NCBI GenBank assembly: GCA_963847705.1
Contig: CAWKBC010000017.1
Location: forward strand, 64,001-128,000
Reading direction: 5' to 3'
Length of the DNA: 64,000 bases
DNA from: an uncultured Pseudomonadota bacterium
GTDB lineage: Bacteria; Myxococcota_A; Polyangia; Fen-1088
The stretch's first letter is position 1, and every line of letters starts with the position of its first letter. Below, piece after piece: positions 37,701-55,681 of this stretch. The notes beneath the pieces are model-generated. The model was not told where the DNA came from and searched no databases. It saw only the letters and a list, made by a program, of their open reading frames with translations. The translations under genes and the position numbers were made by a program.

Positions 37701-38677
37701 GAGGCCAGCCCCCGGCCGGTCAGCTTGGCGAAGACGTCGGCCAGCGTGGGGCGAGACGTCGCCAGGCTGGCCAGCCGCCCGCTGGGGAAGAGCTCAGCGA
37801 TGCGCGGGACCACCTCGGCGCCGCGCGGCGCTTCGAGCACCACGTCTCCGTCGAGAACACGGCCGGGGAGGTTCAAGCGCGCGGCGATGGTGTCGCGGAG
37901 CTCCTCGGGGCGCTCGCCGCGGACGCGAATGACGTCGCCGGCCACGCGCGCGCGCAGCTCGTCGGGCGTGCCGACGGCGGTCAGCTTGCCCCCGTCGAGG
38001 ATGGCGATCCGGTGGCAGCGCTCGGCCTCCTCGGGCTGGTGCGTGGTGACGATGACCGAGAGGCCGCGCGTCGCCACCAGCGAGACCAGCTGATCCCAGA
38101 TGCGGCGCAGCGCCTCGGGATCGACGCCGCGCCCGGGCTCGTCGAGCAGCAACAGCGACGGATCGTGCAGGAGGACGCGCGCGATCTCGATCCGCCGCCG
38201 CATCCCGCCCGAGTACTTGGCCGCCGCCTCGTCGGCGCGATCGCCGAGCTCCATGAGCGCCAGCGCGGCCTCGATCCGCTGGGCCGCCAGGGTGCGCGGC
38301 AGACCGTAGAGCGCGGCGCCGAGCCGGAGGTTCTCCCGGCCGGTCAGCTTGAGGTCGAGGCTCGGCTCTTGAAACACCACGCCGAGCCGCGCGCGGTAGC
38401 GGGCGTCGCCGCCGTCGGTTGGCTGGCCGTCGAGCGCCAGCGTTCCGGCGTGGGGCGGGATGAGGCCCGCCAGCAGACGAAAGGCGGTGGTCTTGCCGGC
38501 GCCGTTCGGACCGAGGAGGCCGAAGATCTCGCCAGGGGCAACGTCGAAGCTGAGGCCGTCGAGGGCGGTGCGCTCCTTGAACCGCCGGGTGAGGCCGGTC
38601 GCCCGAAGCCGAGGCACCCCGTCGATGGCCAAGCGCTGGGGCGCGCCCTGCGGCGCCGAAACGGCGACCGCGGTCAT
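37697..38677 (-). CDS. ABC transporter ATP-binding protein (DrrA-like)
   Basis: GPNGAGKTT, YSGGMRRR, LLLDEP; ATG at 38677. Confidence 0.93.
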   Translation of the reverse strand: MTAVAVSAPQGAPQRLAIDGVPRLRATGLTRRFKERTALDGLSFDVAPGEIFGLLGPNGAGKTTAFRLLAGLIPPHAGTLALDGQPTDGGDARYRARLGVVFQEPSLDLKLTGRENLRLGAALYGLPRTLAAQRIEAALALMELGDRADEAAAKYSGGMRRRIEIARVLLHDPSLLLLDEPGRGVDPEALRRIWDQLVSLVATRGLSVIVTTHQPEEAERCHRIAILDGGKLTAVGTPDELRARVAGDVIRVRGERPEELRDTIAARLNLPGRVLDGDVVLEAPRGAEVVPRIAELFPSGRLASLATSRPTLADVFAKLTGRGLAS

Positions 38678-40506
38678 GCGATCGTCCTGTCGATCACCAG
38701 CGCCACGAACAGCAGGGTCAGGTAGACGATCGAGTAGAGAAACAACGATCGCGCCCAGGCGTTGGCCGCCGCGCGACGGAACCCCGCCGCCGCCCAGGCG
38801 ATGAACACCGCGCCCAGCAACGCCGCGCAGGCCAGGTAGCCAAGTCCCGCCACCCGCAGGGGCTCGAGGGCGATCGTCGCCGCCACCAGGCCGACGGAGA
38901 AGAGCACGATGGTGGCGCGCGTGGCGCGCGTGGAGATCGCCAGCGGGAGCACCTTGAAGCCGGCGCGCGCGTAGTCGGCCGCGCGGTAGGTGGCGATCGC
39001 CAGGAAGTGGGGGATCTGCCAGAGGAACAGGATCGAGAAGAGCGCCAGCCCCGGCGCGTCGAGGCGACCGGTGACCGCCGTCCAGCCCATGAGCGGCGGC
39101 AGCGCGCCCGGCACCGCGCCCACGAAGAGCGCGATCGCGGAGTGGCGCTTGAGCGGCGTGTAGACGACCACGTAGCTGCCGAGCGCGGCCAGGCCCAGGA
39201 TCCCGGTCAAGAGGTTGCCGCCCAGAAAAACCAGCGGCACCGCGGTGCAGGCGCAGAGGGTGCCGAACGCCAGCGCCGTCTCGGGCGAGAGCGTCGCGCG
39301 CGGCAGGGGGCGGTCGCGCGTCCGCTCCATCAGCGGATCGACGTCTCGCTCGAGGTACATGTTGAAGGTGTTCGAGGCGGCGACCAGGAGCGCGGTGCCG
39401 ATGAGGGTCATGATCGCGCGCCAGCCGGCGATCTGCCCGGGCGCCAGCCAGAGGCCGCCGGCGAAGGTGATGATCACCATCCCGGTGATGCGCGGCTTGG
39501 CCAGCGTCACCACCGCGCGGAACCAGGCCAGGCCCGGGAAGCTGGGGAGGCCGTCGGGGCGCGCCGCGAGCACGGTGAGCACCATCGCGGCGAGCAGCGC
39601 GGTCGCCACCGCCAGGTGACTCTCGACGGTGAGGAGGTCGAGGAACGACTGCACCGAGCGAATCCCCAGCCAGATCTGGACGCCGACGAGGACCGGCGCG
39701 AGGACCGCCAGCAGCCGGAGGGCGGGCCGCGTCGCCCGCCGCAGCGTCACGATCGACGAGGCGAGGACCAGGCAGGCGACCGTGACGGCGTTCAGGCGGT
39801 GCAGCGCCTGGATGAGGACCGTCGGGTGCGCGTGCGGCCAGAGCGAGCCCCGGCAGAGCGGCACGTCGGTGCAGGCCAGCGCCGCGCCCGAGTGGCGAAC
39901 CAGGCCGCCCAGCACCATCTGGACGTAGACCGCGACGGCGGTGATGAGCGCCAGCCGACCGACGACCGGCGGGGCCGCCGCGCGCGCCACCGCGGGCCGC
40001 GATCGGACCGCGATGTAGAGCACCGTCATGAAGAACAGCAGCGACGTCGCCGTGTGCGCCGTCGATATCGGCGTGGGAAGCCGCAGGAGCACGGTGATCC
40101 CGCCGAGCAGCGCCTGCGCGAACACCAGCCCGACCGCCAGCCACCCGAAGGGACGCAGGCGGCGCAGCCCCGCGTCGCGCGTCCCGGTCAGCAAGCCAGC
40201 CAGGACCAGGGTCAGGATCACCACCGTGCCCGCCGCCAGACGGTGGCTGTGCTCGACCAGCACGCCGCCCTCCATCTTGGGCATGAACGTCCCGTAGCAG
40301 GTCGGCCAGTCGGGGCAGGCCAGGCTGGAGCCGGTGCCGTGGACCAGGCCACCGATCAGGATCAGCAGATAGGTGGCGACGGCCGTGGCCACGGCGAACC
40401 GGTGAATCCACGGCCGACCAGCCTGCTGCGGTGCCGGCGCCGGTGGCGTCGGCGGTACCGCTGGCTCTGCGCCTGAAAGCTGCGCAGCGCTACCTTCACT
40501 TGGCAT
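38674..40506 (-). CDS. ctaB: Fused heme A synthase (CtaA/COX15) and heme O synthase (CtaB/CyoE)
   Basis: N-half: GLVHGTGSSLACPDWPTC, EHSHR. C-half: KPRI, NMYLERDVD..MERT..RPLP, YTPLKR, WQIPHF. Confidence 0.92.
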   Translation of the reverse strand: MPSEGSAAQLSGAEPAVPPTPPAPAPQQAGRPWIHRFAVATAVATYLLILIGGLVHGTGSSLACPDWPTCYGTFMPKMEGGVLVEHSHRLAAGTVVILTLVLAGLLTGTRDAGLRRLRPFGWLAVGLVFAQALLGGITVLLRLPTPISTAHTATSLLFFMTVLYIAVRSRPAVARAAAPPVVGRLALITAVAVYVQMVLGGLVRHSGAALACTDVPLCRGSLWPHAHPTVLIQALHRLNAVTVACLVLASSIVTLRRATRPALRLLAVLAPVLVGVQIWLGIRSVQSFLDLLTVESHLAVATALLAAMVLTVLAARPDGLPSFPGLAWFRAVVTLAKPRITGMVIITFAGGLWLAPGQIAGWRAIMTLIGTALLVAASNTFNMYLERDVDPLMERTRDRPLPRATLSPETALAFGTLCACTAVPLVFLGGNLLTGILGLAALGSYVVVYTPLKRHSAIALFVGAVPGALPPLMGWTAVTGRLDAPGLALFSILFLWQIPHFLAIATYRAADYARAGFKVLPLAISTRATRATIVLFSVGLVAATIALEPLRVAGLGYLACAALLGAVFIAWAAAGFRRAAANAWARSLFLYSIVYLTLLFVALVIDRTIA

Positions 40507-41281
40507 CGTAAGCGAAGCTCACCTCGGTCGGTTTGTCGGCGGCCACGGTCGCCTCGGCGGTCTTGGCGCCGTAGCGCTCCTGCCAGGCGGTCAGGGTGTA
40601 CTTGCCGGCCGGCACGCCGGTGATCTTGAAGTGGCCGTCCGGACCGGTGACGGCGAAGAAGGGATTGGCGTTGACCACCACGTAGCCGGTCATCCAGGGG
40701 TGCACGTCGCACTTGAACTTGAGGATGTCGCCGGCGTCGCCGATCTTGCGCGCGATCGGCGGCAAGCCCGGGATCTCCGCCTGGTTGAACAGCGTCGAGG
40801 GCCCCTTGTAACCGTGCACGTTGTGCAGCGTCTGATCGCCGTTGCGGATGGAGATCATCTGTCCGGCCACGATCGCCTGGACGCGCGGGCGGTACATGCA
40901 GGCGCTCTGATCGAGCGCGGCGGGCGTCGCCGGCGGCTCGTAGTGGCCGGTCGCTCCGTCGGTGATGCGGACGACGACGTTGGCCAGGCCACCGGCCGGG
41001 CCCACGACGACCTCTTCTTCCCGTGTCGGCGTCTTGGCGCAGAACGGATCGGCGTCGCGCTTGGTCATCGCCATCTCGGGCGGCGTGCCGCTCAGCTTCA
41101 CCGTCCCCTCGATGACGCCGTTTCCAGCCGGAGGCGCCGCGGCGGCCGCCGGGACGGTCGCGGCGGTGGCGCCCGGCGCGACCGGCGCGGGGGCCGGGGC
41201 CGGCGGGGCCTCCGTCTTCTGGCAGGCGCCCGCCATCGTCGACACGGCGAGCGCAAAAATGGCCAGGCCCCGCTTGATCAT
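40496..41281 (-). CDS. Lipoprotein with cupredoxin-like and carboxypeptidase-regulatory-like domains
   Basis: Lipobox MAGAC; LDQSACMY.P, HNVH, CDVHPWM, VPAGKYTLTAW; TTGACG-N17-TAGCAC ends 7 nt before ATG 41281. Confidence 0.85.
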   Translation of the reverse strand: MIKRGLAIFALAVSTMAGACQKTEAPPAPAPAPVAPGATAATVPAAAAAPPAGNGVIEGTVKLSGTPPEMAMTKRDADPFCAKTPTREEEVVVGPAGGLANVVVRITDGATGHYEPPATPAALDQSACMYRPRVQAIVAGQMISIRNGDQTLHNVHGYKGPSTLFNQAEIPGLPPIARKIGDAGDILKFKCDVHPWMTGYVVVNANPFFAVTGPDGHFKITGVPAGKYTLTAWQERYGAKTAEATVAADKPTEVSFAYDAK

Positions 41282-41342
41282 GGTCGTCGTGCTAACAGGC
41301 GCCCGCCGACCCGTCAAGCACCGCAATGGCTGGGCCGGCGAG

Positions 41343-42056
41343 TCAGGCTCCGTTCGCCACCCGACCGGCCGCGGCGAGCAGCAGGTCGATCCCTTCGGGG
41401 GTGGCGGAAAAGTAGCCTCGGATGCGGAGCTGGCGGTCGATCAAGACCAGGTTCTCGCCGTGGAAGATCTGCCAGAAGTCGCCCGTGCCGTCGCCCCCGG
41501 TGTTCACCTTCTCCTTGCCCATGCCGACCTTGAAGCCGCCCACCACGGCGGCCTCGATGGCCTCGGCGGGGCCGGTCAGGAACGACCAGGCGAGCGGGTT
41601 CGCGCCGTAACGGGCCCCGTACTCGGCCAGTCGCGCCGGGGTGTCTCGCGCCGGATCGACGGAGATCGACACCAGGTGAAAATCGGGCCCCAGCTTGCGC
41701 GCCCGGCGGCCCACCTCGGCCATCTTCTGGCTGAGCAGCGGGCAGGCCTCCTGGCAGGAGGTGAAGATGAAGTCGGCGACCCAGACCCTCCCCGTGAGGT
41801 CGCGGGTGCCGAACGGCTGCCCGCGCTGATCGGTCAGCGTGAAGGCGGGCAGGGTGCCCAGGATCGCGGGCGAGGCCCCGAGGCGCCGGGTGACGGAGCG
41901 GAAGATCGGCACCCCGAACAGCAGCCCCAAGAGCGCCGCCCAGATGAGGGGATTGCCCGCCAGGCGCGCGGCGGCCGGTTGCCGGCGCGGGCGAAACCCG
42001 ACAGAGATTTCCGGGGAAGAACGTTCGGCGCGATCCGCTGAGGCGGGGGTGCTCAC
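41343..42056 (-). CDS. SCO1/SenC copper chaperone
   Basis: FIFTSCQEACP (CxxxC), SISVDP..DTP, WSFLTG, distal His in IFHG. Confidence 0.93.
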   Translation of the reverse strand: MSTPASADRAERSSPEISVGFRPRRQPAAARLAGNPLIWAALLGLLFGVPIFRSVTRRLGASPAILGTLPAFTLTDQRGQPFGTRDLTGRVWVADFIFTSCQEACPLLSQKMAEVGRRARKLGPDFHLVSISVDPARDTPARLAEYGARYGANPLAWSFLTGPAEAIEAAVVGGFKVGMGKEKVNTGGDGTGDFWQIFHGENLVLIDRQLRIRGYFSATPEGIDLLLAAAGRVANGA

Positions 42057-42144
42057 GCGTTGGTCTTCCGCCGCGTTCGGGCTTCTGTCAAGCGTCCGTC
42101 CTTGACCGGCGAGCTCTGCTCGTTTACCTCATTGAAGGTCGCTC

Positions 42145-42570
42145 ATGCGTCTGCGTGCTGGAAATCACGGGGCTTCGGCCGCCGCCAAGTCGCTCACCGT
42201 CGCGGTGATGGCGGCAGCGATGGCCGCCCAGCTGCTGTCGATCTCGCACGAGATGACGGTGCGCCACTTCCGCTGCGCCGAGCACGGCGAGCTGACGCAC
42301 GTCGCGGCGCTCACCGCGCCGGCCGCGGAGCTGCCCGCGCCGCGCGCGAATGACGCGTTCCGCGCGGGCGACGCCGAAGCGGCCGACGCGCACGAGCACT
42401 GCGGCGTCACCTTCACCGTCGAAGGGAGCTCCTGCACGCCCTCGATGGGGAGCGTGACCAGCGCGGCACCTCCGGCGGCGGCGCCTCGTCCGGCGCCCTC
42501 GGCCGTCTCCTGGCACGAGCGGTCGTTCGTCCTGGCGAGCGCCCCCAAGACCTCACCTCCCTCGGCGTAG
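42145..42570 (+). CDS. His/Cys-rich leader protein 1 ending in APKTSPP (putative metal-sensing arrest peptide)
   Basis: Hydrophobic N-segment, SHE.TVRHFRCAEHGELTH, HEHC, FVLASAPKTSPPSA; close paralog at 46262. Confidence 0.8.
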   Translation: MRLRAGNHGASAAAKSLTVAVMAAAMAAQLLSISHEMTVRHFRCAEHGELTHVAALTAPAAELPAPRANDAFRAGDAEAADAHEHCGVTFTVEGSSCTPSMGSVTSAAPPAAAPRPAPSAVSWHERSFVLASAPKTSPPSA

Positions 42571-42607
42571 CGACAGATCGTCCTCGCGCGCGGCAGAGGC
42601 GAAGATC

Positions 42608-42654
42608 GGGCTCGCCTTCGGGGCTCGCCTTCGGGGCTCGCCTTCGGGCTCGCC
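42608..42654. repeat. 13-bp tandem repeat GGGCTCGCCTTCG x3 plus partial, in the leader-to-receptor spacer
   Basis: Copies start at 42608, 42621 and 42634. Confidence 0.9.
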
Positions 42655-42698
42655 GTGCGTTTCCCAGATCCATTGCCGTCGGAGGCGTCGAGGTCCCA

Positions 42699-45303
42699 GT
42701 GCTTTGTTCTGTCCGGTCCCGCACAATTCTGCCCATCGTTCTGGCGCTCGCGCTGGACGTCGGTGCGCCTGCCGTGACGCGCGCGGAGGCGCCGGCGCCG
42801 CGGCTGCAGCCGCCAGTGGTGATTGAGGAGAACCGTCCGGCGTATCCCGCCGAGGCGCTACCCACCCGACCGACCGGCGAGGTCTCGGTGACGGCGACGG
42901 TCAATGTCGCCGGCGAGGTGAGCGGCGTCGAGCTGGCCCAGGGGGTGGCACCCCCGCTCGATCGTGCGGCGCTGGACGCGGCCACCCGGTGGCGGTTTCG
43001 GCCCGCCACCCGCGACGGAGTCCCCGTCGCCAGCCGCGTCCAGCTGCTGTTTCACTTCGAGCCACCACCAGTCGTCGCTCCGACAGTGACTCCGGCGGCG
43101 TCGGCAGCCGCCCCGCCGCCCGGGGCGGTGTCGACCACCTTACCCACGTCGAACCCCGGCGTGCCGGCGCTTCCCGAGATCGCTCCCGTGCCGGCATCGA
43201 AACCGGGAGAAGCCGCGGCGATTGACGTCGACGTGCGAGGCCGCCGACAACAGGAGCCGAACCGCGGCGCCTCCGATTCTCGAGATCCAGGTCGGGCAGC
43301 TGGCGGTCATCGCCAATCAGAAGGCCTCGGACATCCTGCAGCTGGCGCCGGGGATCTTCATCGCCAACGAAGGAGGCTCCGGCCACGCCGATCAGGTCTT
43401 CCTGCGCGGGTTCGACGCCGAGCAGGGGCAGGCGATCGAGTTCACCGTCAATGGTGTCCCGATCAACGAGGTCGACAACACCGACGGCCACGGCTACGCC
43501 GACACGCACTTCATCATTCCCGAGCTGGTGAAGAACCTGCGGGTCATCGAGGGGCCGTTCAGCCCGCGCCAGGGGGACTTCGCCGAGGCCGGGAGCGCCG
43601 ACTACCAGCTGGGGGTGCCGGACCGACGGCTCGAGCTCAGCGCCAGTTACGGCTCGTTCAACACGCGCCGCACCCTGGCGCTCTGGGCGCCCGAGAACGA
43701 GCGCGAGGGGACCTTCGCGGCGGCGCAGTTCTTCCAGAGCGACGGGTTCGGCACCAACCGGGCCAGCACCAACGGGAGCGCGATGGCCGAGTACGAAGGA
43801 GATCTGGGGGCGCGCGGCTCGTGGCGGCTGCTCGGCACCGCTTACGGCACCCATTACCAGAGCGCCGGCGTCGTGCGGGCGGACGACGTGGCCTCCGGCC
43901 GGATCGGCTATTACGGCACCGAGGACGCCGCCCAGGGGGGCGACGCCCAGCGCTACACGCTCTCCTTCGATCTGCAGAGCCCGAGCGACAAGGACTTCCT
44001 GGCCCAGCAGGTGTTCCTCACCTGGCGCTCGCTCCGCATCGACGAGGACTTCACCGGCTTCCTGCTCGACAACCAGGAGCTCGGCCAGAGCTATCACCCC
44101 CAGCGCGGCGACATGATCGAGCAGGACTACACCGCGTTCACCGCCGGCGCGCGCGGCAGCGACAAGCGGACCGGCTTTTTCTTGGGGCGGCCTCAGTCCC
44201 TCGAGGTCGGTTACTACGCCCGCTACGATCACACCACCCCGGAGATCCAGCGTCTGCGCTTCGGGACCCAGAAACCCTACGCCGTCGACGAAGACCTCAC
44301 CACGGACATCATGAACCTGGCGCTCTATGCCGATCTCGACCTGCGACCGACGCGCTGGCTGACCGTGCGCGGCGGGATCCGGCAGGAGTACTTCGACTAC
44401 AACGTTCTCAACGCCTGCGCGACCGGAGCCGACGGGTTCATCCAGAACACCCCACTCAACCCGATCTGCCCCTCGTACGACAGCACCGGGCCCCGGCTGC
44501 CGACCGAGCGCGACACCGCCACCGCCCTGGTGACCGAGCCGAAGGTCACGGTGCTGGCCCAGGTGGCGCGGCCGCTGACCCTGACGGCCAGCTACGGCCA
44601 GGGGGCGCAGTCCCTCGACGCCGTCTACATCACCCAGAACGAGCAGGCGCCATTTTCGAGCATCAGTGCGGCCGAGGGGGGCGCCATCTACCACCAGCGC
44701 TTCATTCCGGTCGATCTGACCGCGCGCGCCGTGGGGTTCTACACCCACGTCAGCCGCGATCTGATCTTCAACCCGACCTTGGGCCGTTTGACGACCTCGA
44801 CCGGCACCACCCGGGACGGCGGGCTGGTCTCGCTGCGCGCGACCGGTCGTTGGTTCGACGAGCTCGCTTCGGCCACCTACGCGCATGCCACCTACGACGT
44901 CGACGGCACGCTGGTCCCCTATGTGCCGTCGGTGATCGCGCGCTCCGACACCGCGGTGTTCGGACCGCTCGGCCGGCGTCGCTTCTTTGATCATGGGTTG
45001 ACCGGGACGGCCGGCTTCGCCGTCAACTTCGTGGGGCCGCGGGCCTTGCCGTTCAGCCAGACCGCGGCGTCGACGCTGGAGCTCGACGCCTCGGCCAGCG
45101 TGCGGTGGAGCTTCCTGCGCCTCGGCCTCCTGGCCCAGAACCTCACCGACGCGCGCTATCCACTGACCGAGCTCTACTACGCCTCGAACTTCAACAGCCG
45201 CGCGGAACCGACGCTGGTTCCGACCGAGCACTTCAGCGCGGCGCCGCCGTTCTCGCTGCTGGCGACGGTGTCGCTGCTCTTCGACGCGGGGAACGAGCGA
45301 TGA
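42699..45303 (+). CDS. TonB-C-domain / TonB-dependent receptor fusion (one extra base near 43277 splits the frame)
   Basis: N-terminal TonB_C (PAYPAEA...AALDAATRWRFRPA..DG.PV), plug (GHADQVFLRGFDAEQG...NGVPIN...GHGYADTHFIIPE) and beta-barrel. Removing one T from CCGATTCTC joins the two ORFs. Confidence 0.88.
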
Positions 45304-46265
45304 GGCTCGGCACCTGGGGGCTGGCGCTGCTGGCGCTGGGCGCGGTGGAGTGCGGCGGAACGACCGGCGGCAACTTGATCCAGATGCCGCTCCTGGTGGG
45401 CGGGATCGCGCGGGACGCCTCGCAGCCTTTCACCTTCGTCACCGGGCAGGGCTGGAACGTCACGCTCACCCAGGCCGAGGTGGTGTTGGGGCCACTCTAT
45501 TTCAACATCGATGCGCCCTCGACGGCCTCGTTTCGGAGCGGCGTGGTGATCGTCCAGGCCACCCAGCAGTTCATCGTCGACATGCTCGATCCGACGCTCC
45601 AGAACGTTCCGGGCGGCGCCGACGGCGAGACGGGAACCGCCGTCTCGGTGGAGGTCGGATTTTATACGACGGTCAATCAGTACAACGACATGGCCCTGGT
45701 GGGCGCCGACGGAGGCGCCATGAAAACGCTGCCCGCGCCGCTGGCGGCCGACGGTCAGCAGGGGACGGCCTACCTGGCCGGGGAAGCGACCAAGCAGGGG
45801 GCGGTCGTCCATTTTGCCGGCCGGGTTCAGATCACCGGCGCGCTCGTCACGCAGGGCACGCCCATCGACTTTCTGGCGACGCTCACCGGCGCCTGCGCCG
45901 GCATCACGCCCCCCGCCTGTGGCCTGAAATTCACCACCACCAGCGGTCCGCTGCAGCTGCGGGTGAATCCCGCGGACTGGTTCAACCAGGCTGACTTTTG
46001 CAACGTGGTGCGGCCGCCACCGGTGCAGGCCGTCGGCGACGGCGGCCTGGGCGACGCAGGCGCTGGCGACGCGGGGCCAAGCGTCGTCTCCACTGGCCAA
46101 ACTGGCGACGCCGGCGTCGATGCGGGCACCCCTGCCGGCGCTCCCTGCGCCCCCACCGCGGGGACGGTTTACGACTGGACCGACACCAATCCGTTCAACT
46201 CGGCGGTGCTGCAGGGAATGAAGGGGAGCGCCGGGGTCTATCGCTTCAGCCTCGGTGGTCAATGA
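45300..46265 (+). CDS. Receptor-associated putative lipoprotein
   Basis: ATGA overlap; MRLGTWGLALLALGAVEC signal; GWNVTLTQA motif; DAG low-complexity repeats. Confidence 0.8.
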   Translation: MRLGTWGLALLALGAVECGGTTGGNLIQMPLLVGGIARDASQPFTFVTGQGWNVTLTQAEVVLGPLYFNIDAPSTASFRSGVVIVQATQQFIVDMLDPTLQNVPGGADGETGTAVSVEVGFYTTVNQYNDMALVGADGGAMKTLPAPLAADGQQGTAYLAGEATKQGAVVHFAGRVQITGALVTQGTPIDFLATLTGACAGITPPACGLKFTTTSGPLQLRVNPADWFNQADFCNVVRPPPVQAVGDGGLGDAGAGDAGPSVVSTGQTGDAGVDAGTPAGAPCAPTAGTVYDWTDTNPFNSAVLQGMKGSAGVYRFSLGGQ

Positions 46266-46684
46266 AGTGGCGCAGAAACCAGCGGTTTTCGTCCTCGGCG
46301 AAGTCGTTCGCCGTCGCGATGACGCTGATCGCGACGGTCGCGCAGTTCTTTGCGCTCTCGCACGAGGTCACGGTCCGGCACTTCCGCTGCGCCGAGCACG
46401 GCGAGCTGACGCACGTCGCAGCCACCTCGGGCGACTCCCCGCTGCCGGTCCCGCCGCCCACGGACGCGCTCCGGCGCGGAGAGGCCGCCGCGCCCGACGC
46501 GCACGAGCACTGCGCCGCGGCGTTCACCCTCGAGGGCGGTTCGTCGTCGCCGTTTGTCGGCGGCGCGGCTCGCCTCGCTCCGCCGCCGCAGGACTGTCCG
46601 CCGCCTCTCTTCCCTCTGGTCCGGGATCGCACCTTCGTCCTGGCCAGCGCGCCCAAGACCTCGCCTCCCGCCGTCCGCGCCTGA
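46262..46684 (+). CDS. His/Cys-rich leader protein 2 ending in APKTSPP
   Basis: ATGA-coupled to the upstream gene; same motifs as 42145-42570; 41 bp identical core (42265-42305 = 46379-46419). Confidence 0.8.
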   Translation: MKWRRNQRFSSSAKSFAVAMTLIATVAQFFALSHEVTVRHFRCAEHGELTHVAATSGDSPLPVPPPTDALRRGEAAAPDAHEHCAAAFTLEGGSSSPFVGGAARLAPPPQDCPPPLFPLVRDRTFVLASAPKTSPPAVRA

Positions 46685-46784
46685 CCGCGATCGCGTGCGC
46701 TCCCGGAGAGCCCGGACGGGAGGCGCACTCCAGTTCCCTTTACACCGGGCGAGACGGCGACCTGTGAATCGAATGGAGAGAGTG

Positions 46785-48053
46785 ATGAAGAACAAGACGA
46801 AAATGATGATGCTCGGGTCTGTGCTGGGTCCGCTGGCGGCGGCCGGTTGCGGGGGAAGCAGCAGCAGCTCCAACGGCAACGACCCCCAGAGCCCTCCGGC
46901 CGGAACCATGCTGACGGCGCCCACCATCAACTTCTCGATGACCTCGCCCAACACCCCGCTGTCGGTCCAGGTCACGTTCTCGGGAGAGACCTTGGGAATC
47001 AATGGCCTGCCATTTCAGCCGGTCAGTCAGGGAGATCCCTACTTCGTGGATGGCTGGAACATGACGATCGACGAAGACATCGTGGTGGTTGGCAACATCA
47101 CGCTCAATGCCATGCCGACCGAGGACCAGACCTGGTACGACATGGGTCCGCAAGTGGCCCACAAGGTGGGTCCCTACGTCTTTGATGCCCACCAGGCGGC
47201 CGGGTTCATCGGCAAGGACGGCATCGAGCCGGCCAGCCCGATGTTCGTCTTCAACAATGAGGACGACGGGTCGTCGTTCGATTCGAACCAGCGCTACGCC
47301 TTCTCTTACGACACGGTCGTGGCCGCTTATCCGGCCTGGAACCTGAACCTGACGTCGCAAGGGGAGGCCGACTACGACACGATGGTTTCGAACGGCTGGA
47401 ACAAATTCATCCGCGCCACCGCCACCTACGTCGGGACCGGGACCTACCCCGACCCCTCCGTGCAGGCGAAGTTCGCCGCTCTTCCGACCACCGTCAACTT
47501 CACGATGGGCTGGAACGACGCCACCTCCAACACCAACTGCGTCAACGCGGATCTCGGCCCCGAGGACGATCTGATGAACAGGGGCGTCGTCATCTTTCCC
47601 AACCAGGCCTCGGTCGCTCAGATCACGATGCACGTCGATCACCTCTTCTGGGACAAGCTGAAACAGGAGGGGGCGGCGCTGCGCTTCGATCCGATCGCGG
47701 CCTTCGCGCCGGCGGACACCAGCACCACGTCGTTCAGCCTCAACAGCTTCCACGCCCAACACCTGCTGGCGACCTTCGCCGATGGATCGCCCCTCCCGGA
47801 CCGGGCGCCCGACCAGCCGAATCCCTCGCCCAACGCTGGAGCGAACACCCCCGACGACGTCCAACCGAATCCGCTTCAGATCACCTTCAACCTCAACGGC
47901 GTCACCGCGCCGGACGGATCGGCCTTCCCCGACGACCTGGTGCAGTTCATGGCCTTCAGCGCGCAATCGCAGATGCACCTGAACGCCCAGGGGCTCTGTT
48001 ACATCAAGGGACAAAATCCCGCCGACCCCTATTACGCCCCGAGCGTTCAGTAG
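46785..48053 (+). CDS. Acidic, Asn/Gln-rich lipoprotein, possible metal-scavenging surface protein
   Basis: GGAGAG RBS; lipobox AAGC; HVDHLF and QMHLN...C motifs. Confidence 0.8.
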   Translation: MKNKTKMMMLGSVLGPLAAAGCGGSSSSSNGNDPQSPPAGTMLTAPTINFSMTSPNTPLSVQVTFSGETLGINGLPFQPVSQGDPYFVDGWNMTIDEDIVVVGNITLNAMPTEDQTWYDMGPQVAHKVGPYVFDAHQAAGFIGKDGIEPASPMFVFNNEDDGSSFDSNQRYAFSYDTVVAAYPAWNLNLTSQGEADYDTMVSNGWNKFIRATATYVGTGTYPDPSVQAKFAALPTTVNFTMGWNDATSNTNCVNADLGPEDDLMNRGVVIFPNQASVAQITMHVDHLFWDKLKQEGAALRFDPIAAFAPADTSTTSFSLNSFHAQHLLATFADGSPLPDRAPDQPNPSPNAGANTPDDVQPNPLQITFNLNGVTAPDGSAFPDDLVQFMAFSAQSQMHLNAQGLCYIKGQNPADPYYAPSVQ

Positions 48054-48062
48054 GACCACGAC

Positions 48063-49187
48063 ATGAGCGCGATGGAATCGGTCAAGGAGGTCCTGCTGGC
48101 CTCGGGCGCCGGGTGGGTGCTCTGGTTTTTGGGGGCGCTGTCCATGTCCAGCCTGGCGCTGGCGATGGAGCGCTGGCTCTACCTGCGCAAGCGCGGCGGC
48201 GATCTGGAAGCGCTGGCGCGGATGCTGGACGAGCAGCTGCGGGCCGGGGACTTCGCGCGCGCCCGCCAGTTGCTGGAGGCGAGCCCCGCGGTGGCGGCGC
48301 GCGTGGCGGACGCCGGGCTGCGGCTCGCCGAGCGCGGGACCGAGGCGGCGGAGAAGGCGATGGACAGCGCGGCGGCGCTGGAGCGCGGGCGGCTCGAGCG
48401 GGGGCTGGCGTTCCTGGCCACCATCGGAAACAACGCGCCCTTCGTCGGCCTGTTCGGGACGGTGGTCGGCGTCATCCACGCCTTCGAGGAGCTGGGGCAC
48501 GCCGCCCCGGGCCACGGCGCGACCTCGGCGGGGCAGGTGGCCTCGCAGGCGGTGATGGCGGGGATCGCCGAGGCGCTGGTGGCGACCGCGGTCGGCATCG
48601 CCGTCGCGCTGCCGGCGGTGGCCACCTACAACTATCTGCAGCGGCGGGTGACGTCGCTGCTCTCCGGGACCGACGTGCTGTCGAGCCTGGTGCTGGCCTA
48701 CGTCGCCGACGACAGCGCGCGGACCGCGCGCGGCGCCGGTGCTGCGGGAGGTGTCAGGTGGCGGGCAGCTAGCGGCGGCGACAACGGCGGGCTCATCCAG
48801 GGCATCAACGTCACGCCGCTGGTCGACGTGATGCTGGTGCTGCTGGTGATCTTCGTGGTGACCGCCAAGATCATCGTGACGCCGGCGGTGCCGCTCGATC
48901 TGCCGCACGCCGCCCACGGCGAGGAGGTGCAGGTGGTCCTGTCGATCATCCTGCCGGTGCGCGGCCCCATGCTGGTCAACGGCGCGGCGGTGACCGACGA
49001 CGCCGGATTCGAGGGGCTCGCCCGCGCGGCCTTCGCCGGGAACCCCGAGCTGCGCGCGGTCATCCAGGCCGACGGCGAGGTGCCCCACCGCAAGGTGGTC
49101 CACCTGCTCGACGAGCTGAAGGGGGTGGGCATCACCCGCGTCGCCTTCGGCGCGCTCCCCGACGCTCCGGCGTCGCCCCGGCCGTGA
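48063..49187 (+). CDS. exbB: ExbB and ExbD in a single reading frame (true fusion or indel-joined genes)
   Basis: ExbB motifs (ATIGNNAPFVGLFGTV, GIAEALVATAVG) followed by ExbD motifs (INVTPLVDVMLVLLVIF, IQADGEV). Confidence 0.85.
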   Translation: MSAMESVKEVLLASGAGWVLWFLGALSMSSLALAMERWLYLRKRGGDLEALARMLDEQLRAGDFARARQLLEASPAVAARVADAGLRLAERGTEAAEKAMDSAAALERGRLERGLAFLATIGNNAPFVGLFGTVVGVIHAFEELGHAAPGHGATSAGQVASQAVMAGIAEALVATAVGIAVALPAVATYNYLQRRVTSLLSGTDVLSSLVLAYVADDSARTARGAGAAGGVRWRAASGGDNGGLIQGINVTPLVDVMLVLLVIFVVTAKIIVTPAVPLDLPHAAHGEEVQVVLSIILPVRGPMLVNGAAVTDDAGFEGLARAAFAGNPELRAVIQADGEVPHRKVVHLLDELKGVGITRVAFGALPDAPASPRP

Positions 49188-49191
49188 CGGC

Positions 49192-50052
49192 ATGAGCGAG
49201 CGCGAGCCGACGTCCGAGATCGACGAAGCCCCGGGCCAGGTGCAAGGGAAGGAACAGGGGAGAGAACCGGGGGAGCTCCGCATCGTCGACCTGGTGTTCG
49301 CGGGCGAGCCGGGCGGACGGGTGCGTCGCCTCGCCATCGGTGGCGCCTGCGTCGTCGCGCTCTACGCCGGTGCGATCCTGGTGGTGGGGCACTTCGGGCG
49401 ATCAGGCGCGTCGATCTGCGCGGAGATGGCGGCCCGCGTGCACGACGCGATCGCGGCCGAGCGCGCCGTCGACGTCACGCCGCCGCCCAAACCCCCGCCG
49501 CCGGCCGAGTCGCCGCCCACGCCGCACGTGGCGGAGCCGGCGCTCCGGGAGCACGTCCACACGGCGGCCGCGCACCACGCGCCAGCCGCGCCGGCGCAGG
49601 CGGGCCAGATTGCCGCCGCCACCACCTCACCCGTCGACTTCACCGGCTCGGCGTTCGTGGTCGGGTCGGGGCCGTCGTACGCCGGGGGCGCCACCACCAG
49701 CGCGGGGACGAACCGCAAGCCGGCCACCGGCGCCGTCGCGCCCAACGGCACCGGCGACGGCGCGGCGCGCAGCCGGGCGCGCCCCGTGTCGCTGGATCAG
49801 GCCGCCTGGAACTGCCCCTGGCCGGCCGAGGCCGACGCGCGTCAGGTCGATCAGGAGACGGTGGTCATCCGGGTGGCGGTCGGGACGGACGGGCGCGCCG
49901 ATCGGGTCGATGTCTTGCAGGATCCGGGATTCGGCTTTGGGCCGGCGGCGCGGCAGTGCGCGCTGGCCACGCGGTTCGGCGCGGCTCGCAACCCGGCCGG
50001 CGATCCGATCGCCGCGCTCTCACCGCCCATTCGGGTTCACTTCTTTCGATGA
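49192..50052 (+). CDS. tonB: TonB family energy transducer
   Basis: TM, Pro-rich linker, C-terminal WPAEA...VIRVAV..DG.A..V.V..DPGFGFG.AA. Confidence 0.8.
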   Translation: MSEREPTSEIDEAPGQVQGKEQGREPGELRIVDLVFAGEPGGRVRRLAIGGACVVALYAGAILVVGHFGRSGASICAEMAARVHDAIAAERAVDVTPPPKPPPPAESPPTPHVAEPALREHVHTAAAHHAPAAPAQAGQIAAATTSPVDFTGSAFVVGSGPSYAGGATTSAGTNRKPATGAVAPNGTGDGAARSRARPVSLDQAAWNCPWPAEADARQVDQETVVIRVAVGTDGRADRVDVLQDPGFGFGPAARQCALATRFGAARNPAGDPIAALSPPIRVHFFR

Positions 50053-50363
50053 GGCGCGCGCCGAACATTGGCCGGATCCTGGCGTCGGCGGCGCTCGCCG
50101 GCCTGGCCACGCTCGGCGGCTGCCACCGGCACACCGCCAGCGCCGCCGACTGCCGCGCCATCCTCGACCGCCTGGTCGCGCTGGAGCTGCAGGAGCAGGG
50201 GTTCCATGATCCGGCGCTGGTGCCGCGCTGGCAGGAGGAGCTGGCGCGCCGCTTCGACGACGATCTGCGCCGTTGCCGCGCCGTCCGTGTCGGCGACGAT
50301 CTCGCGGTCTGTCTGCGGGCCGCTCAGAACCCCGAGGAGATCGCGCACCATTGCGTGAAGTGA
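50049..50363 (+). CDS. Small Cys-rich lipoprotein
   Basis: ATGA overlap; lipobox LGGC plus four more Cys. Confidence 0.7.
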   Translation: MRRAPNIGRILASAALAGLATLGGCHRHTASAADCRAILDRLVALELQEQGFHDPALVPRWQEELARRFDDDLRRCRAVRVGDDLAVCLRAAQNPEEIAHHCVK

Positions 50364-50443: not shown

Positions 50444-51263
50444 TTGTCGACGGTGAGCAGCTCTCCCACAACGTCCCCCACCGCGCCACGCCTCCCTGCG
50501 GGGGAGGGCCTCCTGCACGCGCGGGCGCTCACCGTCGGGTACGACGGCGTCCCGATCTTGCCCCCGCTCACGCTCACGGTCGGCGCGGGGGAGCTGTGGG
50601 CCGTCATCGGGCCGAACGGCGCCGGCAAGTCGACCTTCGTCCGCACGGCCCTCGGGCTCTCTCATCCCGTCGGCGGCACCATCGAGCGCCGGCCGGGCCT
50701 CCGCCTGGCTTACGTTCCGCAGCAGTCGGCCCTCGACGCCATCTTCCCGATCTCGGTCCTGGACTTCGTGCTCATGGGCCTGCAGGGGACCGACAATGTG
50801 ACGCTGGCGAACCCGCGGGCGTACTTCGGCCGCGCCCGCGCCGCGCTGGCGGAGGCGGGCGTCGAGGCGCTGGCGCGGCGGCAGCTTCGCGATCTCTCGG
50901 GCGGGCAACGACAGCGTGTGCTCATGGCGCGGGCGCTGGCGACCGACGCCGATTCTCATCTTCCTCGACGAGCCGACCGCCGCGCTCGACGCATCCTCCG
51001 AACAGGAGGTGCTCGATCTCATTCAGCGTCTCCGCCAGGTGCGGGGCGCCGCGGTCGTGATGGTGACCCACCTCGTCGAGGACGGCCTCGAGCGGGCCGA
51101 CCACGCGCTCCTGCTCGATCGCGATCACCGGGTGGCGTTCGCGGCCACCGCCGCGGCGATGCGCTCCGCGCCCGACTTCGAGAACATCTACGCCCGCTTC
51201 GTCGGACGCCGGGCCCAGGACCGGACCCAAGAAGAGATGCAAAACAAACGGGAAACGCCGTGA
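50444..51263 (+). CDS. znuC: Zn/Mn-type ABC transporter ATP-binding subunit (frameshift near 50953)
   Basis: GPNGAGKST, AYVPQ, LSGGQRQRV, then LIFLDEPT..LD and MVTH in the next frame; restored by removing one T in CCGATTCTC. Confidence 0.82.
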
Positions 51264-52267
51264 GCGACACCGCCGCCACCTGGCACGACCTCTTCGCCAA
51301 CATTGGAATCTTCAGGGACGCCATCCTGGCGGGCGGCCTGGCCGGGGCCCTGCTCGGTTTCCTCGGGGTGCACGTGGTGTTGCGGCGGATGGTGTTCGCG
51401 TCGTCGGCCATCGCCCAGGCCGCCGCCCTCGGCGTCGCGCTCTCGTTCTGGGTGCCGGCCGTCATCGATCCGCTCGGCCACGCCGCCGGTCACGTGGCCG
51501 GCCCGGGCGGGCACGTCATCACGTCACCCCTCTTTCAGCCCGTGTTGTGGGCGATCGCCGCCTCCCTGCTCGCCACCCTGGTGTTCATCGCCAACCCGGT
51601 GCGCCTGCACCTGACGCGCGAGAGCATGCTGGGATTCGTCTTTCTGGCCAGCGGCGCCGGCGCGGTGATCATCGGAGATCGGATCACCCAGGACGCCCAC
51701 GATCTGACCACCATCCTCTTCGGCAGCGCGGTGGTGGTGCAGACCAGCGACCTCTACTGGGTCGGGGCGGCGACCGTGCTCCTGCTGGGCGGCCATCTGG
51801 TGCTCTGGCGGGCGCTGCTGTTCGTCGGCTACGATCCGCTCGGCGCCGAGGTGCAGGGGATGCCCGTGCGTGCGCTCAACGGGTTTCTCTTCGTGTCGGT
51901 CGGGCTGGCCGTCGCGCTTTGCACGCGGGCGCTGGGGGCGCTGCCGGTGTTCGCGTTCAGCGTGCTGCCCGCGATGACCGCGCTGGCGCTGACCTCGCGC
52001 ATCGGCCTCTGCTTTGTCCTGGCGACGGTGTTCGGCGCTTTCTCGGGCCTGGCGGGCTACGCCGTCTCGTTCCGGGCCGAGCTGCCGGTGGGCGCAACCG
52101 AGACGGCGATGGCGGCGGCGCTGCTGGCGGCGGCGCTCGCCTGGCGTTACGTCGGCGCCGAGCGCGATCGCCGGCGGGCGCGCCAGGGCGCCTCCCAGGC
52201 TGCCGCGACGGGCGGCTCGAAGAGCGCCCCCGAGACGGTCTCGGTGAAAGGCGGACCCCATGCTTAG
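51260..52267 (+). CDS. znuB: Zn/Mn-type ABC transporter permease
   Basis: LGVHVVLRRMVF, ILFGS, YDPLGA..QG; His-containing loop; many TMs. Confidence 0.85.
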   Translation: MSDTAATWHDLFANIGIFRDAILAGGLAGALLGFLGVHVVLRRMVFASSAIAQAAALGVALSFWVPAVIDPLGHAAGHVAGPGGHVITSPLFQPVLWAIAASLLATLVFIANPVRLHLTRESMLGFVFLASGAGAVIIGDRITQDAHDLTTILFGSAVVVQTSDLYWVGAATVLLLGGHLVLWRALLFVGYDPLGAEVQGMPVRALNGFLFVSVGLAVALCTRALGALPVFAFSVLPAMTALALTSRIGLCFVLATVFGAFSGLAGYAVSFRAELPVGATETAMAAALLAAALAWRYVGAERDRRRARQGASQAAATGGSKSAPETVSVKGGPHA

Positions 52268-53567
52268 CGCGGTGATCGTCTGTCTGTTGGCGCAGCAGAT
52301 CGATCAAAGCGCGCTCGAAAAGGCCATGGCCGCGGACGCCGCCGCCAAGGCGGCCACGGGGCCGGCTGCGACGTCGACGTCGACGCCCGCCGGGCCGCCG
52401 GTCCCGGGCCTGACGCCGGCACCCGAGGGCGTCGCGGTGGATGTCACGCCGGGCGGCGGAAGCTGGGCCGCCCAGCAAGGCGCTCGCGCTCCCGGCGGCA
52501 GCCTCCTCAACCCGGCCCTCTCGTTCATCTTCGACGGCAGCTTCGGGTACTACGGCGCGCACACCGGTGACTTCGCCGCGCTCGGGTTGCCCGCGGCGGG
52601 CGACGATCCGTCCGTGACCCGGCAAGGGTTCGGCGTCCAGGAGATCGAGCTCGCCGCCCAGTCGGCGATCGATCCCTACTTCGAGGGGGCGATCTTCCTC
52701 ACCATCCCCAACCTCGACGGTCTGGAGGTCGAGGAGGCGTACCTCGTCACCACCTCGCTCCCGTTCAACCTGCAGATCAAGGCGGGGACCTTCCGCTCGA
52801 AGTTCGGACGCAACAACGGCCAGCACCTGCACGTGCAGTTCTTCACCCGGCGCCCGCTCATGACCGCGCTCCTCTTCGGTGAGGACGGATTGCGCGGGCC
52901 GGGCGCGCAGGCCTCGGTCCTGCTGCCGCTGCCCTGGTTCGCCACGCTCTACGTGGAGTCGTTCAGCATCACGCCACCCGACGATCTGACGGGTGTCGCG
53001 ACGTTTGGCGGGGGCGTGCGGCTCACCCCCAACAACCTGACCTACACGGCGGAGCTCGAGCAGTTCTTCGAGCTCGCCGAGTCGCACTCGCTGCTGGTGG
53101 GTCTCGACTTTGCGACCGGCCGCTCGGTCGACTGCACGATGGCCGCCCCCTGTGTCCCCCTCACCTTGGACGGTCCGCGCAGCTTTCTCTATGGCGCCGA
53201 CCTCTATTACAAATGGAAGCCGGCCAACGTCGCCCAGAGCTACGCCAGCTTTCAGTGGACCACCGAGTTCTACGCCCGCACCCTGGCCGACGGGGGGCCC
53301 ACCGAGGGGGCCGGCTACAGCGAGGCGGTCGTGCAGATCGACCGGCGCTTCTTCCTGGGGGGACGATTCGATCTGACCGGCTTGCCGAGCGGCCCCGACA
53401 TCCCGCGGCGCTACGGCGGCTCCGCCTCGCTCACCTTCACGCCGAGCGAGTTCTCGCGGCTGCGCCTCTACGTCCAGGAGCTCGGCGGCCCCGGCGTGGC
53501 CGCGACCACCGTCGGGTTCTTGCAGGCCGAGTACGCAATGGGCGCGCACGGCGCTCACCCCTTCTGA
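52260..53567 (+). CDS. Outer-membrane beta-barrel protein of the type found with zinc ABC operons
   Basis: NPALSFI, QEIEL...IDPYF, EEAY, FGRNNGQHLH, SEFSRLRL, C-terminal GAHGAHPF. Confidence 0.8.
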   Translation: MLSAVIVCLLAQQIDQSALEKAMAADAAAKAATGPAATSTSTPAGPPVPGLTPAPEGVAVDVTPGGGSWAAQQGARAPGGSLLNPALSFIFDGSFGYYGAHTGDFAALGLPAAGDDPSVTRQGFGVQEIELAAQSAIDPYFEGAIFLTIPNLDGLEVEEAYLVTTSLPFNLQIKAGTFRSKFGRNNGQHLHVQFFTRRPLMTALLFGEDGLRGPGAQASVLLPLPWFATLYVESFSITPPDDLTGVATFGGGVRLTPNNLTYTAELEQFFELAESHSLLVGLDFATGRSVDCTMAAPCVPLTLDGPRSFLYGADLYYKWKPANVAQSYASFQWTTEFYARTLADGGPTEGAGYSEAVVQIDRRFFLGGRFDLTGLPSGPDIPRRYGGSASLTFTPSEFSRLRLYVQELGGPGVAATTVGFLQAEYAMGAHGAHPF

Positions 53568-53581
53568 TAGGAGATCTGCCC

Positions 53582-54502
53582 ATGCGCCTCGGATCCAAGC
53601 TCACCGCTCTCTTCCTGGCGGGCGCGATGCTGCTCGGCGCGCGGAGCGCCTCGGCCAAGCTGCGGGTGGTCGCCACCATCGAGACGCTGGCCGATCTCTG
53701 CCGCCAGGTCGGCGGCGATCGGGTCGAGGTCACCTCGCTCTCGCACGGTTACCAGGATCCGCACTTCGTGGAGGCCAAGCCCTCGCTGGTGCTCACCCTC
53801 AACCGCGCCGACGCGCTGGTCTACGTCGGGCTCGACCTCGAGATCGGCTGGCTCCCGCCGCTGGTGCAGCAGTCGCGGAACCCGCACATCCAGCGCGGGC
53901 AGCCGGGGAACATCGACGCCTCGACCGGCATCAAGGTCGAGGACGTGCCGAACATCCCCGCCGATCAGCTGCGCGCCCTCGGCGACATCCACCCGCTCGG
54001 CAACCCGCACTACTGGATCCCGCCCAAGAACGCCCGGGGGATCGCGCGCGTCCTGGCGCAACGATTCAGCGAGCTCGACGTCGCGGGGACGGCGGCCTAC
54101 CAGGCCGGCCTGGCCGCGTTCGAGCAGCGCCTCGACAGCAAGGAGAAGGAGTGGGACAGGGCCGCGGCGCCGCTGCACGGCCTCAATATCGTCACCTATC
54201 ACAAGAGCTGGTCGTACGTGGCCGAGTGGCTCAAGATGCAGGAGGTCGGCTACATCGAGCCGAAGCCGGGGATTCCGCCCACCGCCAACCACACCGCGCA
54301 GCTCATCGAGCTCATGCGCAAGTCGAACGTGAAGCTGGTGATCGTCGAATCCTTTTACCCGAGCAGCCTGGCCCGCTTCGTCGCCGAAAACGGGCACGCC
54401 CGCCTGGTGAGCGCCCCCTCCGACGTCGGCGCGGCCCCAGGCATCAAGACCTACTTCGAGCTGGTCGACGCGGTGATCGCCGCGTTCGTGGGCGGCAGGT
54501 AA
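53582..54502 (+). CDS. znuA: Cluster A-I metal-binding protein
   Basis: QDPHFVE, GNPHYW, TYHKSWSY, IEPKPGIPPT. Confidence 0.9.
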   Translation: MRLGSKLTALFLAGAMLLGARSASAKLRVVATIETLADLCRQVGGDRVEVTSLSHGYQDPHFVEAKPSLVLTLNRADALVYVGLDLEIGWLPPLVQQSRNPHIQRGQPGNIDASTGIKVEDVPNIPADQLRALGDIHPLGNPHYWIPPKNARGIARVLAQRFSELDVAGTAAYQAGLAAFEQRLDSKEKEWDRAAAPLHGLNIVTYHKSWSYVAEWLKMQEVGYIEPKPGIPPTANHTAQLIELMRKSNVKLVIVESFYPSSLARFVAENGHARLVSAPSDVGAAPGIKTYFELVDAVIAAFVGGR

Positions 54503-54551: not shown

Positions 54552-55130
54552 ATGAGTCAAACCGCCACAGACGCCTTGCCCGCCCCGACCGTTCACGGGC
54601 CGCATCGGGTGGGCGTGGCCGGAATGTGGACCTTCCTGGCCACCGACGCGATGGGGTTCGCCGGCCTCTTCGTCGCCTACGGCGTGCTGCGCGTGCGCGC
54701 CGACGCCTGGCCCGACCCGCGCGCCCACCTCGGGCTGGGGCTGGGGGCGGCAATGACCTTTGGGCTGCTGGCCTCGGCGTTCACCATGACCCAGGCCACC
54801 CGTGCGACGGCGGCCCGGGCGCGCCTCGGCTGGCTGGTCGTGACCGCCGGCCTGGGGCTGGCATTTCTCGGGGCCGAGCTCGCCGAGTACCGGCGGCTGT
54901 GGACGGCCGCCGATCCGGTGCGGCTCGGCAGCGGCCTCTACGCGGGCACCTTCTACGCGCTCACCGGCTACCATGGACTACACGTCCTGGCGGGCATTGT
55001 TTCTCTGGTCGCGGTCGCGCTCCGTGGCGCGCGGCCGCGGAGCCTCGAGGTGGTGGCGATCTACTGGCACTTCGTCGATCTGGCCTGGATGCCGATCTTC
55101 ACCTTCCTCTACCTGATGCCCGCCCGATGA
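54552..55130 (+). CDS. ctaE: Heme-copper oxidase subunit III
   Basis: GMWTFLATD...F, FYALTGYHGLHV, YWHFVDLAW. Confidence 0.9.
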   Translation: MSQTATDALPAPTVHGPHRVGVAGMWTFLATDAMGFAGLFVAYGVLRVRADAWPDPRAHLGLGLGAAMTFGLLASAFTMTQATRATAARARLGWLVVTAGLGLAFLGAELAEYRRLWTAADPVRLGSGLYAGTFYALTGYHGLHVLAGIVSLVAVALRGARPRSLEVVAIYWHFVDLAWMPIFTFLYLMPAR

Positions 55131-55447
55131 CGACGACGACAACGGCAACGGCGCCCCATCGATCGCGGAGCGAACGACCGGTCGCCACCGCGCTGACGTT
55201 CGTGACGCTGGCACTGCTCACGGTCGCCGAGCTGAGGGTGGCCAGCGGCGCGGGCGCGGGGCCGGGGCGGGCCACGACGCTCGCTGGGCTGCTCATGCTC
55301 AAGGTTGGCCTGGTGCTGATGCTCTGCCTGCGCGCCGATTTTCGCCGCCGCTCAGCGTCGCGGCTGGTCATGATCGCGCTGATCTTCGCCGCTGGCGCCG
55401 CCGCCGTGCTGATGCTGGAGGCCGCTTTTCAGGCGCGCCTGCGATGA
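55127..55447 (+). CDS. Cytochrome c oxidase subunit IV-like protein
   Basis: ATGA overlap; L.LLTVAE...K..LV motif; three TMs. Confidence 0.7.
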   Translation: MTTTTTATAPHRSRSERPVATALTFVTLALLTVAELRVASGAGAGPGRATTLAGLLMLKVGLVLMLCLRADFRRRSASRLVMIALIFAAGAAAVLMLEAAFQARLR

Positions 55448-55665: not shown

Positions 55666-55681
55666 TCACGATCGGCGCTGG

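Follow-up and report, generated by a model that had tools for sequence, protein, structure and literature searches.

Metal-sensing arrest leaders and the twin leaders of the window

Two metal-sensing arrest leaders have had their metal response demonstrated, as far as the accessible text of their reports extends; these, CruR and CutF, both sense copper, and they provide the closest comparison for two small genes, leader 1 and leader 2, of a metal-uptake island in a 64,000-nucleotide stretch from an uncultured bacterium (contig CAWKBC010000017.1, positions 64,001 to 128,000; hereafter the window), for which the names of close homologues and Atlas clusters indicate Polyangia, Myxococcota. CruR (Bp2923) of Bordetella pertussis, a DUF2946 (PF11162) protein of about 140 residues, has an export-like N-terminus, an upstream Cys about 40 residues before a second site of CxxC type, a first Cys to PP distance of 50 and a RAPP tail, and it heads an uptake operon with a TonB-dependent receptor beyond a long spacer (PMC9426467, PMC12992588). 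Its arrest has been shown (PMC12992588), as has Rho termination as its output. CutF of Rhodobacter capsulatus and the CutF-like class are small exported leaders with a Cys/His site and a Pro-rich tail without RAPP, which control the next gene by mRNA structure over its Shine-Dalgarno (SD) sequence (PMC9973294, bioRxiv 10.1101/2025.02.05.636593); CutF itself has CxxxC, stalls with copper present and turns on detoxification, and its pausing depends on EF-P and its signal sequence (bioRxiv 10.1101/2025.02.05.636593). The RAPP/RGPP (RQH) arrest peptides, SecM and ApdA/P are also small proteins that combine a localisation signal with xxPP at the C-terminus, and open reading frames (ORFs) of RAPP/RGPP type have been reported upstream of TonB-dependent receptors (PMC10987492, PMC12992588). 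The principle and the protein class are already in print; the family to which our leaders belong is itself large, unnamed and myxobacterial.

Leader 1 (42145..42570, 141 aa) and leader 2 (46262..46684, 140 aa; every feature given here lies on the forward strand) are paralogues with 54% identity, and an earlier, sequence-only reading of the window correctly recognised what they have in common: a hydrophobic, export-like N-terminal segment (best 17-residue Kyte-Doolittle mean 1.99 in leader 1 and 2.05 in leader 2), SHE.TVRHFRCAEHGELTH, HEHC and the tail. Leader 1 ends in RSFVLASAPKTSPP-SA-stop and leader 2 in RTFVLASAPKTSPP-AVRA-stop, with PP 2 and 4 residues before the stop, respectively. The predicted metal-site codons of leader 1, H35 to C86, whose invariant His/Cys columns suggest metal binding, span 42247..42402, and its APKTSPP codons and stop, the candidate arrest site and anti-Shine-Dalgarno strand, span 42541..42570; the APKTSPP codons of leader 2 are at 46649..46669, with a Cys-to-PP distance of 50 residues. 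Leader 1 is preceded by a divergent gene and is therefore first in its operon, standing 128 nt before the TonB-dependent receptor, and leader 2 is internal, 100 nt before a lipoprotein-exbB-exbD-tonB block, the positions that the earlier reading had given them. The two ORFs are the only significant tblastn matches in the 6.1 Mb assembly, and they are not chance ORFs, since the tail codons show synonymous variation across homologues and 385 homologues were found among 552 candidates. Both fall within the testable CutF-like filters given in the accessible text of PMC9973294 (<150 aa, PP in the last 15 residues and a same-strand neighbour within 1,000 nt).

Set against CruR as described, the leaders have HxHC plus CxEHG in place of CxxC, PxxSPP in place of RAPP, zinc-type targets, masking of the SD that is predicted rather than Rho termination that is shown, and two copies within one operon in the window. 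Unlike CutF, they mostly precede importers, so that the opposite sign of response would be expected, and their predicted anti-Shine-Dalgarno strand consists of the tail codons themselves. They also differ from the RAPP/RGPP peptides in that most members have no Arg, Gln or His at the first position and in that their targets are not sec or yidC; TSPP and KxSPP are not among the arrest motifs described in the accessible text of PMC10987492 and PMC12992588.

We propose a model for the leaders that draws on sequence conservation, spacing, gene context, distribution relative to Zur-type boxes and predicted RNA pairing. The hydrophobic N-terminus would thread the nascent chain through SecY, and once the ribosome has reached the Pro-Pro codons the Cys of HxHC, the last ligand, would lie 50 residues back, placing the His/Cys site just at the periplasm. 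Without zinc the site would stay unfolded and the pause at the final Ser-Pro-Pro would persist, leaving a paused ribosome to cover the tail codons, which would otherwise pair with the receptor SD, and thereby to permit translation of the uptake genes. Once zinc is bound, the site would fold, ending the pause and allowing the pairing to close. Leader 2, starting on the stop codon of lipoprotein 1, would be read only with the first gate open, and would serve as a second checkpoint before lipoprotein 2, exbBD-tonB and znu. A tether of 50 residues spans the tunnel plus the translocon, and folding can pull a chain out of arrest. We regard it as highly probable that the leaders are cis-acting arrest leaders of some kind, and we lean somewhat towards the full statement, that they sense zinc, pause in its shortage and unmask the next start site. 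If true, zinc would join copper as a signal of this mechanism, the known arrest motifs would gain one that lacks the Arg considered central to RAPP-type stalling, and the control of zinc-uptake operons without a Zur box, operons already remarked on in PMC545781, would be explained. More tentatively, and with reservations that outweigh our confidence, zinc sensing without a transcription factor might extend across the phylum, with nascent chains bearing a His/Cys zinc site and a new Arg-less PxxSPP arrest motif, whose codons double as anti-Shine-Dalgarno strand, having repeatedly replaced Zur boxes before the same uptake genes in Myxococcota, and with two of them arranged in series here through a stop-start overlap.

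A leader family of Myxococcota and its relation to DUF2946

Neither leader protein is named by Pfam or NCBIfam. A 48-sequence profile of the family recovers 1,701 clusters at 50% identity, and the family is present in 105 of 301 sampled genomes of the phylum; cultured carriers include Myxococcus eversor, Archangium gephyra and Hyalangium versicolor. In a pattern scan of species genomes, from which 21 of 120 loci were dropped as having no profile match, most records were from Myxococcota, among them cultured Myxococcus, Archangium, Hyalangium and Pyxidicoccus, and two were from Planctomycetota. Across a 130-sequence alignment H40, C43, H46, H83, C84, A130, P131, K132, P135 and P136 are invariant and H34, G47, E48, H81 and S134 nearly so; up to eight His/Cys are conserved in the family, in columns as invariant as the tail. 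The tail had been called invariant, which holds for both window copies and close relatives, but the family-wide core is only P-x-x-S-P-P, mostly APK[TNSQA]SPP, with the non-RAPP form APKTSPP in 108 of 142 representatives and the tail ending 1-3 residues before the stop in 122 of them. HxHC occurs in 133 of the 142 and CxxC in 2, which bears out a site of non-CxxC type, although CutF-like clusters of His/Cys and His-only type are already in print (PMC9973294). The Cys of HxHC lies 48-54 residues from the first Pro of PP in 131 of the 142, and the distance between the two His/Cys clusters varies more freely than this one; a hydrophobic 17-mer above 1.6 is predicted in 94% of 124 members, with a median n-region charge of +3. 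These motif frequencies (142 representatives, pattern scan and 124 members) are partly circular, as the sequences were selected with the tail. As a control for this, a search with the N-terminal half alone, its profile trained on tail-bearing loci, gave 101 matches in 91 of 301 genomes; of the 68 not previously fetched one ran off its contig, and xxPP lies no more than 15 residues from the stop in 65 of the remaining 67, the other two being one truncated and one spurious match. Ten of the 65 tails are variants, such as SPINSPP, SPGLSPP, APSHSPP and one RGPP (locus L385). The leader architecture and the conservation of its tail in Myxococcota are thus both upheld by comparison.

A canonical RAPP or RGPP stands a few residues before APKxSPP in 11 of 276 unique tails (L341, L360, L363, L369, L373, L401 and others) and in only 1 of 148 cluster representatives, with AAPP/AGPP as a control at the same place in 1 of 276; a double arrest site or an evolutionary intermediate is possible. 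A literature search gave no match for APKTSPP, APKQSPP or PKxSPP, and for KTSPP and KQSPP only papers unrelated by title; it yielded no description of the leader family outside supplementary lists, which it did not cover, and members may be among the 5,334 CutF-like entries of PMC9973294.

The earlier reading took the leaders to be analogous to CruR and CutF, and here we part from it. Although neither window protein matches Pfam DUF2946 at E<=1, and the gathering cut-off is not reached, 28 of 130 members give weak DUF2946 matches (best 2.7e-5), with no other family matched more than once, and two family loci pass the DUF2946 cut-off in the genome search. Eight of 30 Atlas neighbours are clusters with 15% DUF2946. 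Among the 31 DUF2946 proteins fetched, the first Cys of CxxC lies 48-52 residues from PP in 22 of the 25 measured (mode 50), the same spacing as in the leaders, and hhalign places the Cys of HEHC on that first Cys. Because of these recurrent weak matches, the two loci above cut-off, the Atlas neighbours, the shared Cys-to-PP spacing and the shared aligned Cys, the leader family looks like a divergent DUF2946 (CruR/CutF) branch that has lost the second Cys and the Arg, rather than an independent analogue.

The proposed link of homologues to metal-uptake genes holds well. In the phylum sample 107 unique loci were fetched, of which 5 were too short, and in the 102 scorable loci the next gene encodes an outer-membrane (OM) protein in 65, a TonB-dependent receptor in 24, a Znu component in 2, an efflux OEP in 4 and other lipoproteins in 5, with 2 unassigned. 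A metal-uptake gene is therefore next in 91 of 102 loci, and an uptake or efflux gene in 95; the downstream genes identified include neither sec nor yidC. Of the 301 sampled genomes 161 have the OM gene, and 66 OM loci without an adjacent profile match were sorted by eye from hidden Markov model and pattern output (a few being cut by contig ends) into 9 with RAPP/RGPP leaders, 7 with missed PxxSPP-type leaders and 50 with none. At one locus (L069:2856-4792) two leaders stand back to back directly before a COG0523/CobW-type GTPase, and in Myxococcaceae (L071, L082, L111, L119, L124, L125 and L138) the gene after the leader encodes a His-rich lipoprotein that has no name; this lipoprotein gene also stands ahead of the OM gene where the leader is missing and a Zur-type box is present (L411). 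Efflux (OEP) genes follow the leader at L131, L355, L361, L367 and L401, where the sign of the response may be inverted; two of these leaders end in APKIGPP.

Output, signal and competing explanations

In the window, the tail codons of leader 1 are predicted to pair with the receptor translation start region (GGAGG, GAGG and GTG; 42675..42701) with a probability of 0.73, within the top 3.3% of 1,200 start regions, and a ribosome footprint lowers the predicted cost of opening the SD from 10.3 to 6.8 kcal/mol. Across the family, in loci with a called SD and a spacer of <=200 nt (69 of 113 and 44 of 80 loci), pairing of the SD with the tail window is predicted in 38 of 69 and 23 of 44. Adjacent windows give 0-4, and the rate among ordinary gene pairs (12 of 220) and tail transplants (18 of 150) is 5-12%. 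When 60 thinned loci are compared with GC-matched foreign tails, the cognate tail does better in 43 (control window 34 of 60). A plain duplex test over the whole spacer is weak, the cognate being better in 55%. Among related second copies, single folds contain tail-to-SD pairing in 4 of 11. A palindrome common to the leader upstream regions was not found (best 17 of 171; for AT-rich palindromes, 9 of 265 versus 14 in one shuffle).

Zinc is likely to be the signal sensed, because a perfect Zur-type core precedes some of the leaderless copies of the target genes and none of the leader-bearing copies compared with them. The core scored, TGCAA-N5-TTGCA, is the predicted Zur site of Desulfovibrio, and the deltaproteobacterial site ATGCAACNNNGTTGCAT is likewise a prediction (PMC545781). 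A perfect core is present at 18 of 50 leaderless OM loci and at 0 of 81 leader-bearing ones (0/16 plus 0/65), and both states occur within the same families (f7, f26, f29, f42, f47 and f68). Of 40 loci fetched with homologues of the window's receptor, 3 have leaders and 37 do not; the perfect core precedes 12 of the 37, and none of 23 leader-bearing receptor loci. The exclusion is not absolute, as 239 leader loci include 1 perfect and 8 near-perfect cores immediately before the leader. The deltaproteobacterial Zur regulon comprises the same class of target genes but uses a DNA-binding repressor (PMC545781); box and leader are mostly alternatives. In the window's island no Zur-type core was found; two perfect cores lie elsewhere in the genome (G000:C30:144817 and C47:161315), and the one Fur-family gene found in the 85% complete assembly scores as Fur, not Zur. 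At L442 a gene with what we take to be Fur-family motifs, a presumable candidate for the Myxococcota Zur, lies upstream of a leaderless OM locus.

Several observations weigh against the proposal. RAPP-type arrest generally needs the Arg that TSPP lacks (PMC12992588, PMC10987492), and RAPP-like motifs that occur in ordinary proteins mostly cause no stalling; as replacing the Arg relieves the arrest (PMC12992588), its absence here is the main risk to reading these genes as arrest leaders. By profile-profile comparison the DUF2946 match is weak (probability 8%, E 0.004). Four of the 102 loci head efflux genes, so the response sign may vary, and in 29 of the 50 leaderless OM loci a Zur-type core is missing even when 9 of 10 matches suffice. 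Because related genomes do not count as independent samples, P values exaggerate the case. The pairing test took its starts by SD strength. Since Ser-Pro-Pro codons are C-rich by nature, recoding or swapping the tail lowers the pairing but leaves it in 23 of 69 and 15 of 44 loci, and the consensus helix has only 4 invariant pairs and no covariation. Leader 2 lacks tail-to-SD pairing in both the window fold and the consensus, and the opening cost of its SD is unchanged (4.7 versus 4.9 kcal/mol). Finally, the island lies inside a cytochrome oxidase cluster with an SCO1 gene, which points to copper.

Of the alternatives, the one that survives best retains the arrest leader but gives it the transcriptional output of CruR, such that Rho is blocked by the paused ribosome and, once the pause is released, terminates transcription within the spacer. 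Between about -180 and +30 relative to the stop C is more frequent than G, a bias similar to that of 28 DUF2946 loci, but this follows from the Pro/Ala codons; the third positions of the Ser-Pro-Pro codons are unusually AT-rich (third-position GC 0.52-0.57 versus 0.84), and the spacers are long (median 137 nt), though highly structured in folds. Rho would also suit leader 2 with its unpaired SD, and an intrinsic terminator was sought in both spacers and found in neither. As tail-to-SD pairing exceeds all controls we consider Rho unlikely to be the output in place of masking, and the two outputs could act together.

It is less probable still, in our estimation, that the leaders sense copper, nickel or cobalt. 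Both tested relatives sense copper, HupE/UreJ genes lie downstream of His-only CutF-like clusters (PMC9973294), the metal is not determined by Cys/His ligands as such, and in the window's genus the island sits between sco/cox15-ctaB and cox genes. The targets, however, are ZnuA/B/C, a zinc-named OM protein and one COG0523-type GTPase, and they carry Zur-type boxes when leaderless; no NikR-type box was found in the 40 receptor loci and no Rfam match, riboswitches included, in 20 of them, and CxxC is absent.

A shade less probable again is a small exported or membrane-anchored metal-binding protein, such as a chaperone, without regulation in cis, in which the tail is a folding, sorting or proteolysis signal. 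The up to eight conserved His/Cys would suit such a protein, as would the short helix (H124-128) just before the tail in the structure model, which also has a helix at 11-37 and gives no Foldseek match against the PDB at E<=0.001. Yet the middle of the protein is poorly conserved and modelled with low confidence (pLDDT 54-58 for residues 71-100; pTM 0.40), the leader heads its block, the Cys-to-PP distance is fixed where the inter-cluster distance is freer, and in front of the same gene the leader is exchanged for RAPP/RGPP leaders or Zur-type boxes. Alternatively, arrest could report on export or on EF-P activity, with the metal site secondary. This is suggested by the dependence of CutF pausing on EF-P and signal sequence (bioRxiv 10.1101/2025.02.05.636593) and by the EF-P sensitivity that an Arg-less PP motif may have, but is very improbable given His/Cys columns as invariant as the tail and the lack of sec or yidC among the identified downstream genes.

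Proposed serial gating and the surrounding island

The use of two leaders in series, as first read from the sequence, stands for the window's clade but not for all relatives. A second copy lies between two lipoprotein genes in ten other loci (L222-224, L227, L229, L280 and L301-304) and is missing from the same receptor clade at L236 and L291. Among 13 second copies, 6 start in frame on the upstream stop codon (the window included; two are near-identical), 3 have their own TTGAC-N17-TA element and 4 have neither by the patterns used. Comparison of the spacers of these copies suggests that the stop-start overlap arose by deletion of the TTGAC-N17-TA element, and serial gating would be a clade-specific state.

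The operon runs leader 1, receptor, lipoprotein 1, leader 2, lipoprotein 2, exbB, exbD, tonB, a small ORF, ABC ATPase, ABC-3 permease, OM protein and ZnuA. Before leader 1 lies a promoter-like element, TTGACC-N17-TACCTC (42102..42130), with a weak -10, recognised from sequence and with TTGAC-N17-TA in relatives; it is under the threshold of a sigma-70 promoter scan, which no promoter passed. Spacer 1 contains four tandem copies of a GGGCTCGCCTTC-like unit of 12-13 nt (42609-42655), with fewer copies in L254 and L222, and spacer 2 (46685..46784) is structured. The TonB_C-fused receptor, which also has the plug, spans 42699..45303 with a +1 insertion near 43280. Lipoprotein 1 (45300..46265), whose stop overlaps the start of leader 2 (ATGA), and lipoprotein 2 (46785..48053; start inferred from relatives) have no Pfam or NCBIfam family but are conserved behind the window's receptor family, and are candidate zinc-capture partners. 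They are followed by exbB, exbD, tonB and a 104-aa ORF (48063..50363; the first two in apparent fusion from two +1 insertions), by a Znu/Azt-type ABC ATPase (+1 insertion near 50953) and ABC-3 permease (50444..52267), by the OM protein (52260..53567), whose nearest Atlas clusters carry the automatic name zinc-regulated TonB-dependent outer membrane receptor, and by a ZnuA-family solute-binding protein (53573..54502; PF01297, 2.7e-50). We reject a split receptor, an exbB-exbD fusion and a broken ATPase as real features, as each reflects single-base insertions relative to relatives, four in all, which are likely assembly errors. An Rfam scan of window positions 38,000-60,000 gave no match. The island is flanked by divergent sco and cox15-ctaB genes and the cytochrome oxidase cluster, and interrupts this oxidase and assembly cluster (38674-42056 and 54552-59764); downstream of znuA, and on its strand, many relatives have a cox3-like and a small membrane gene.

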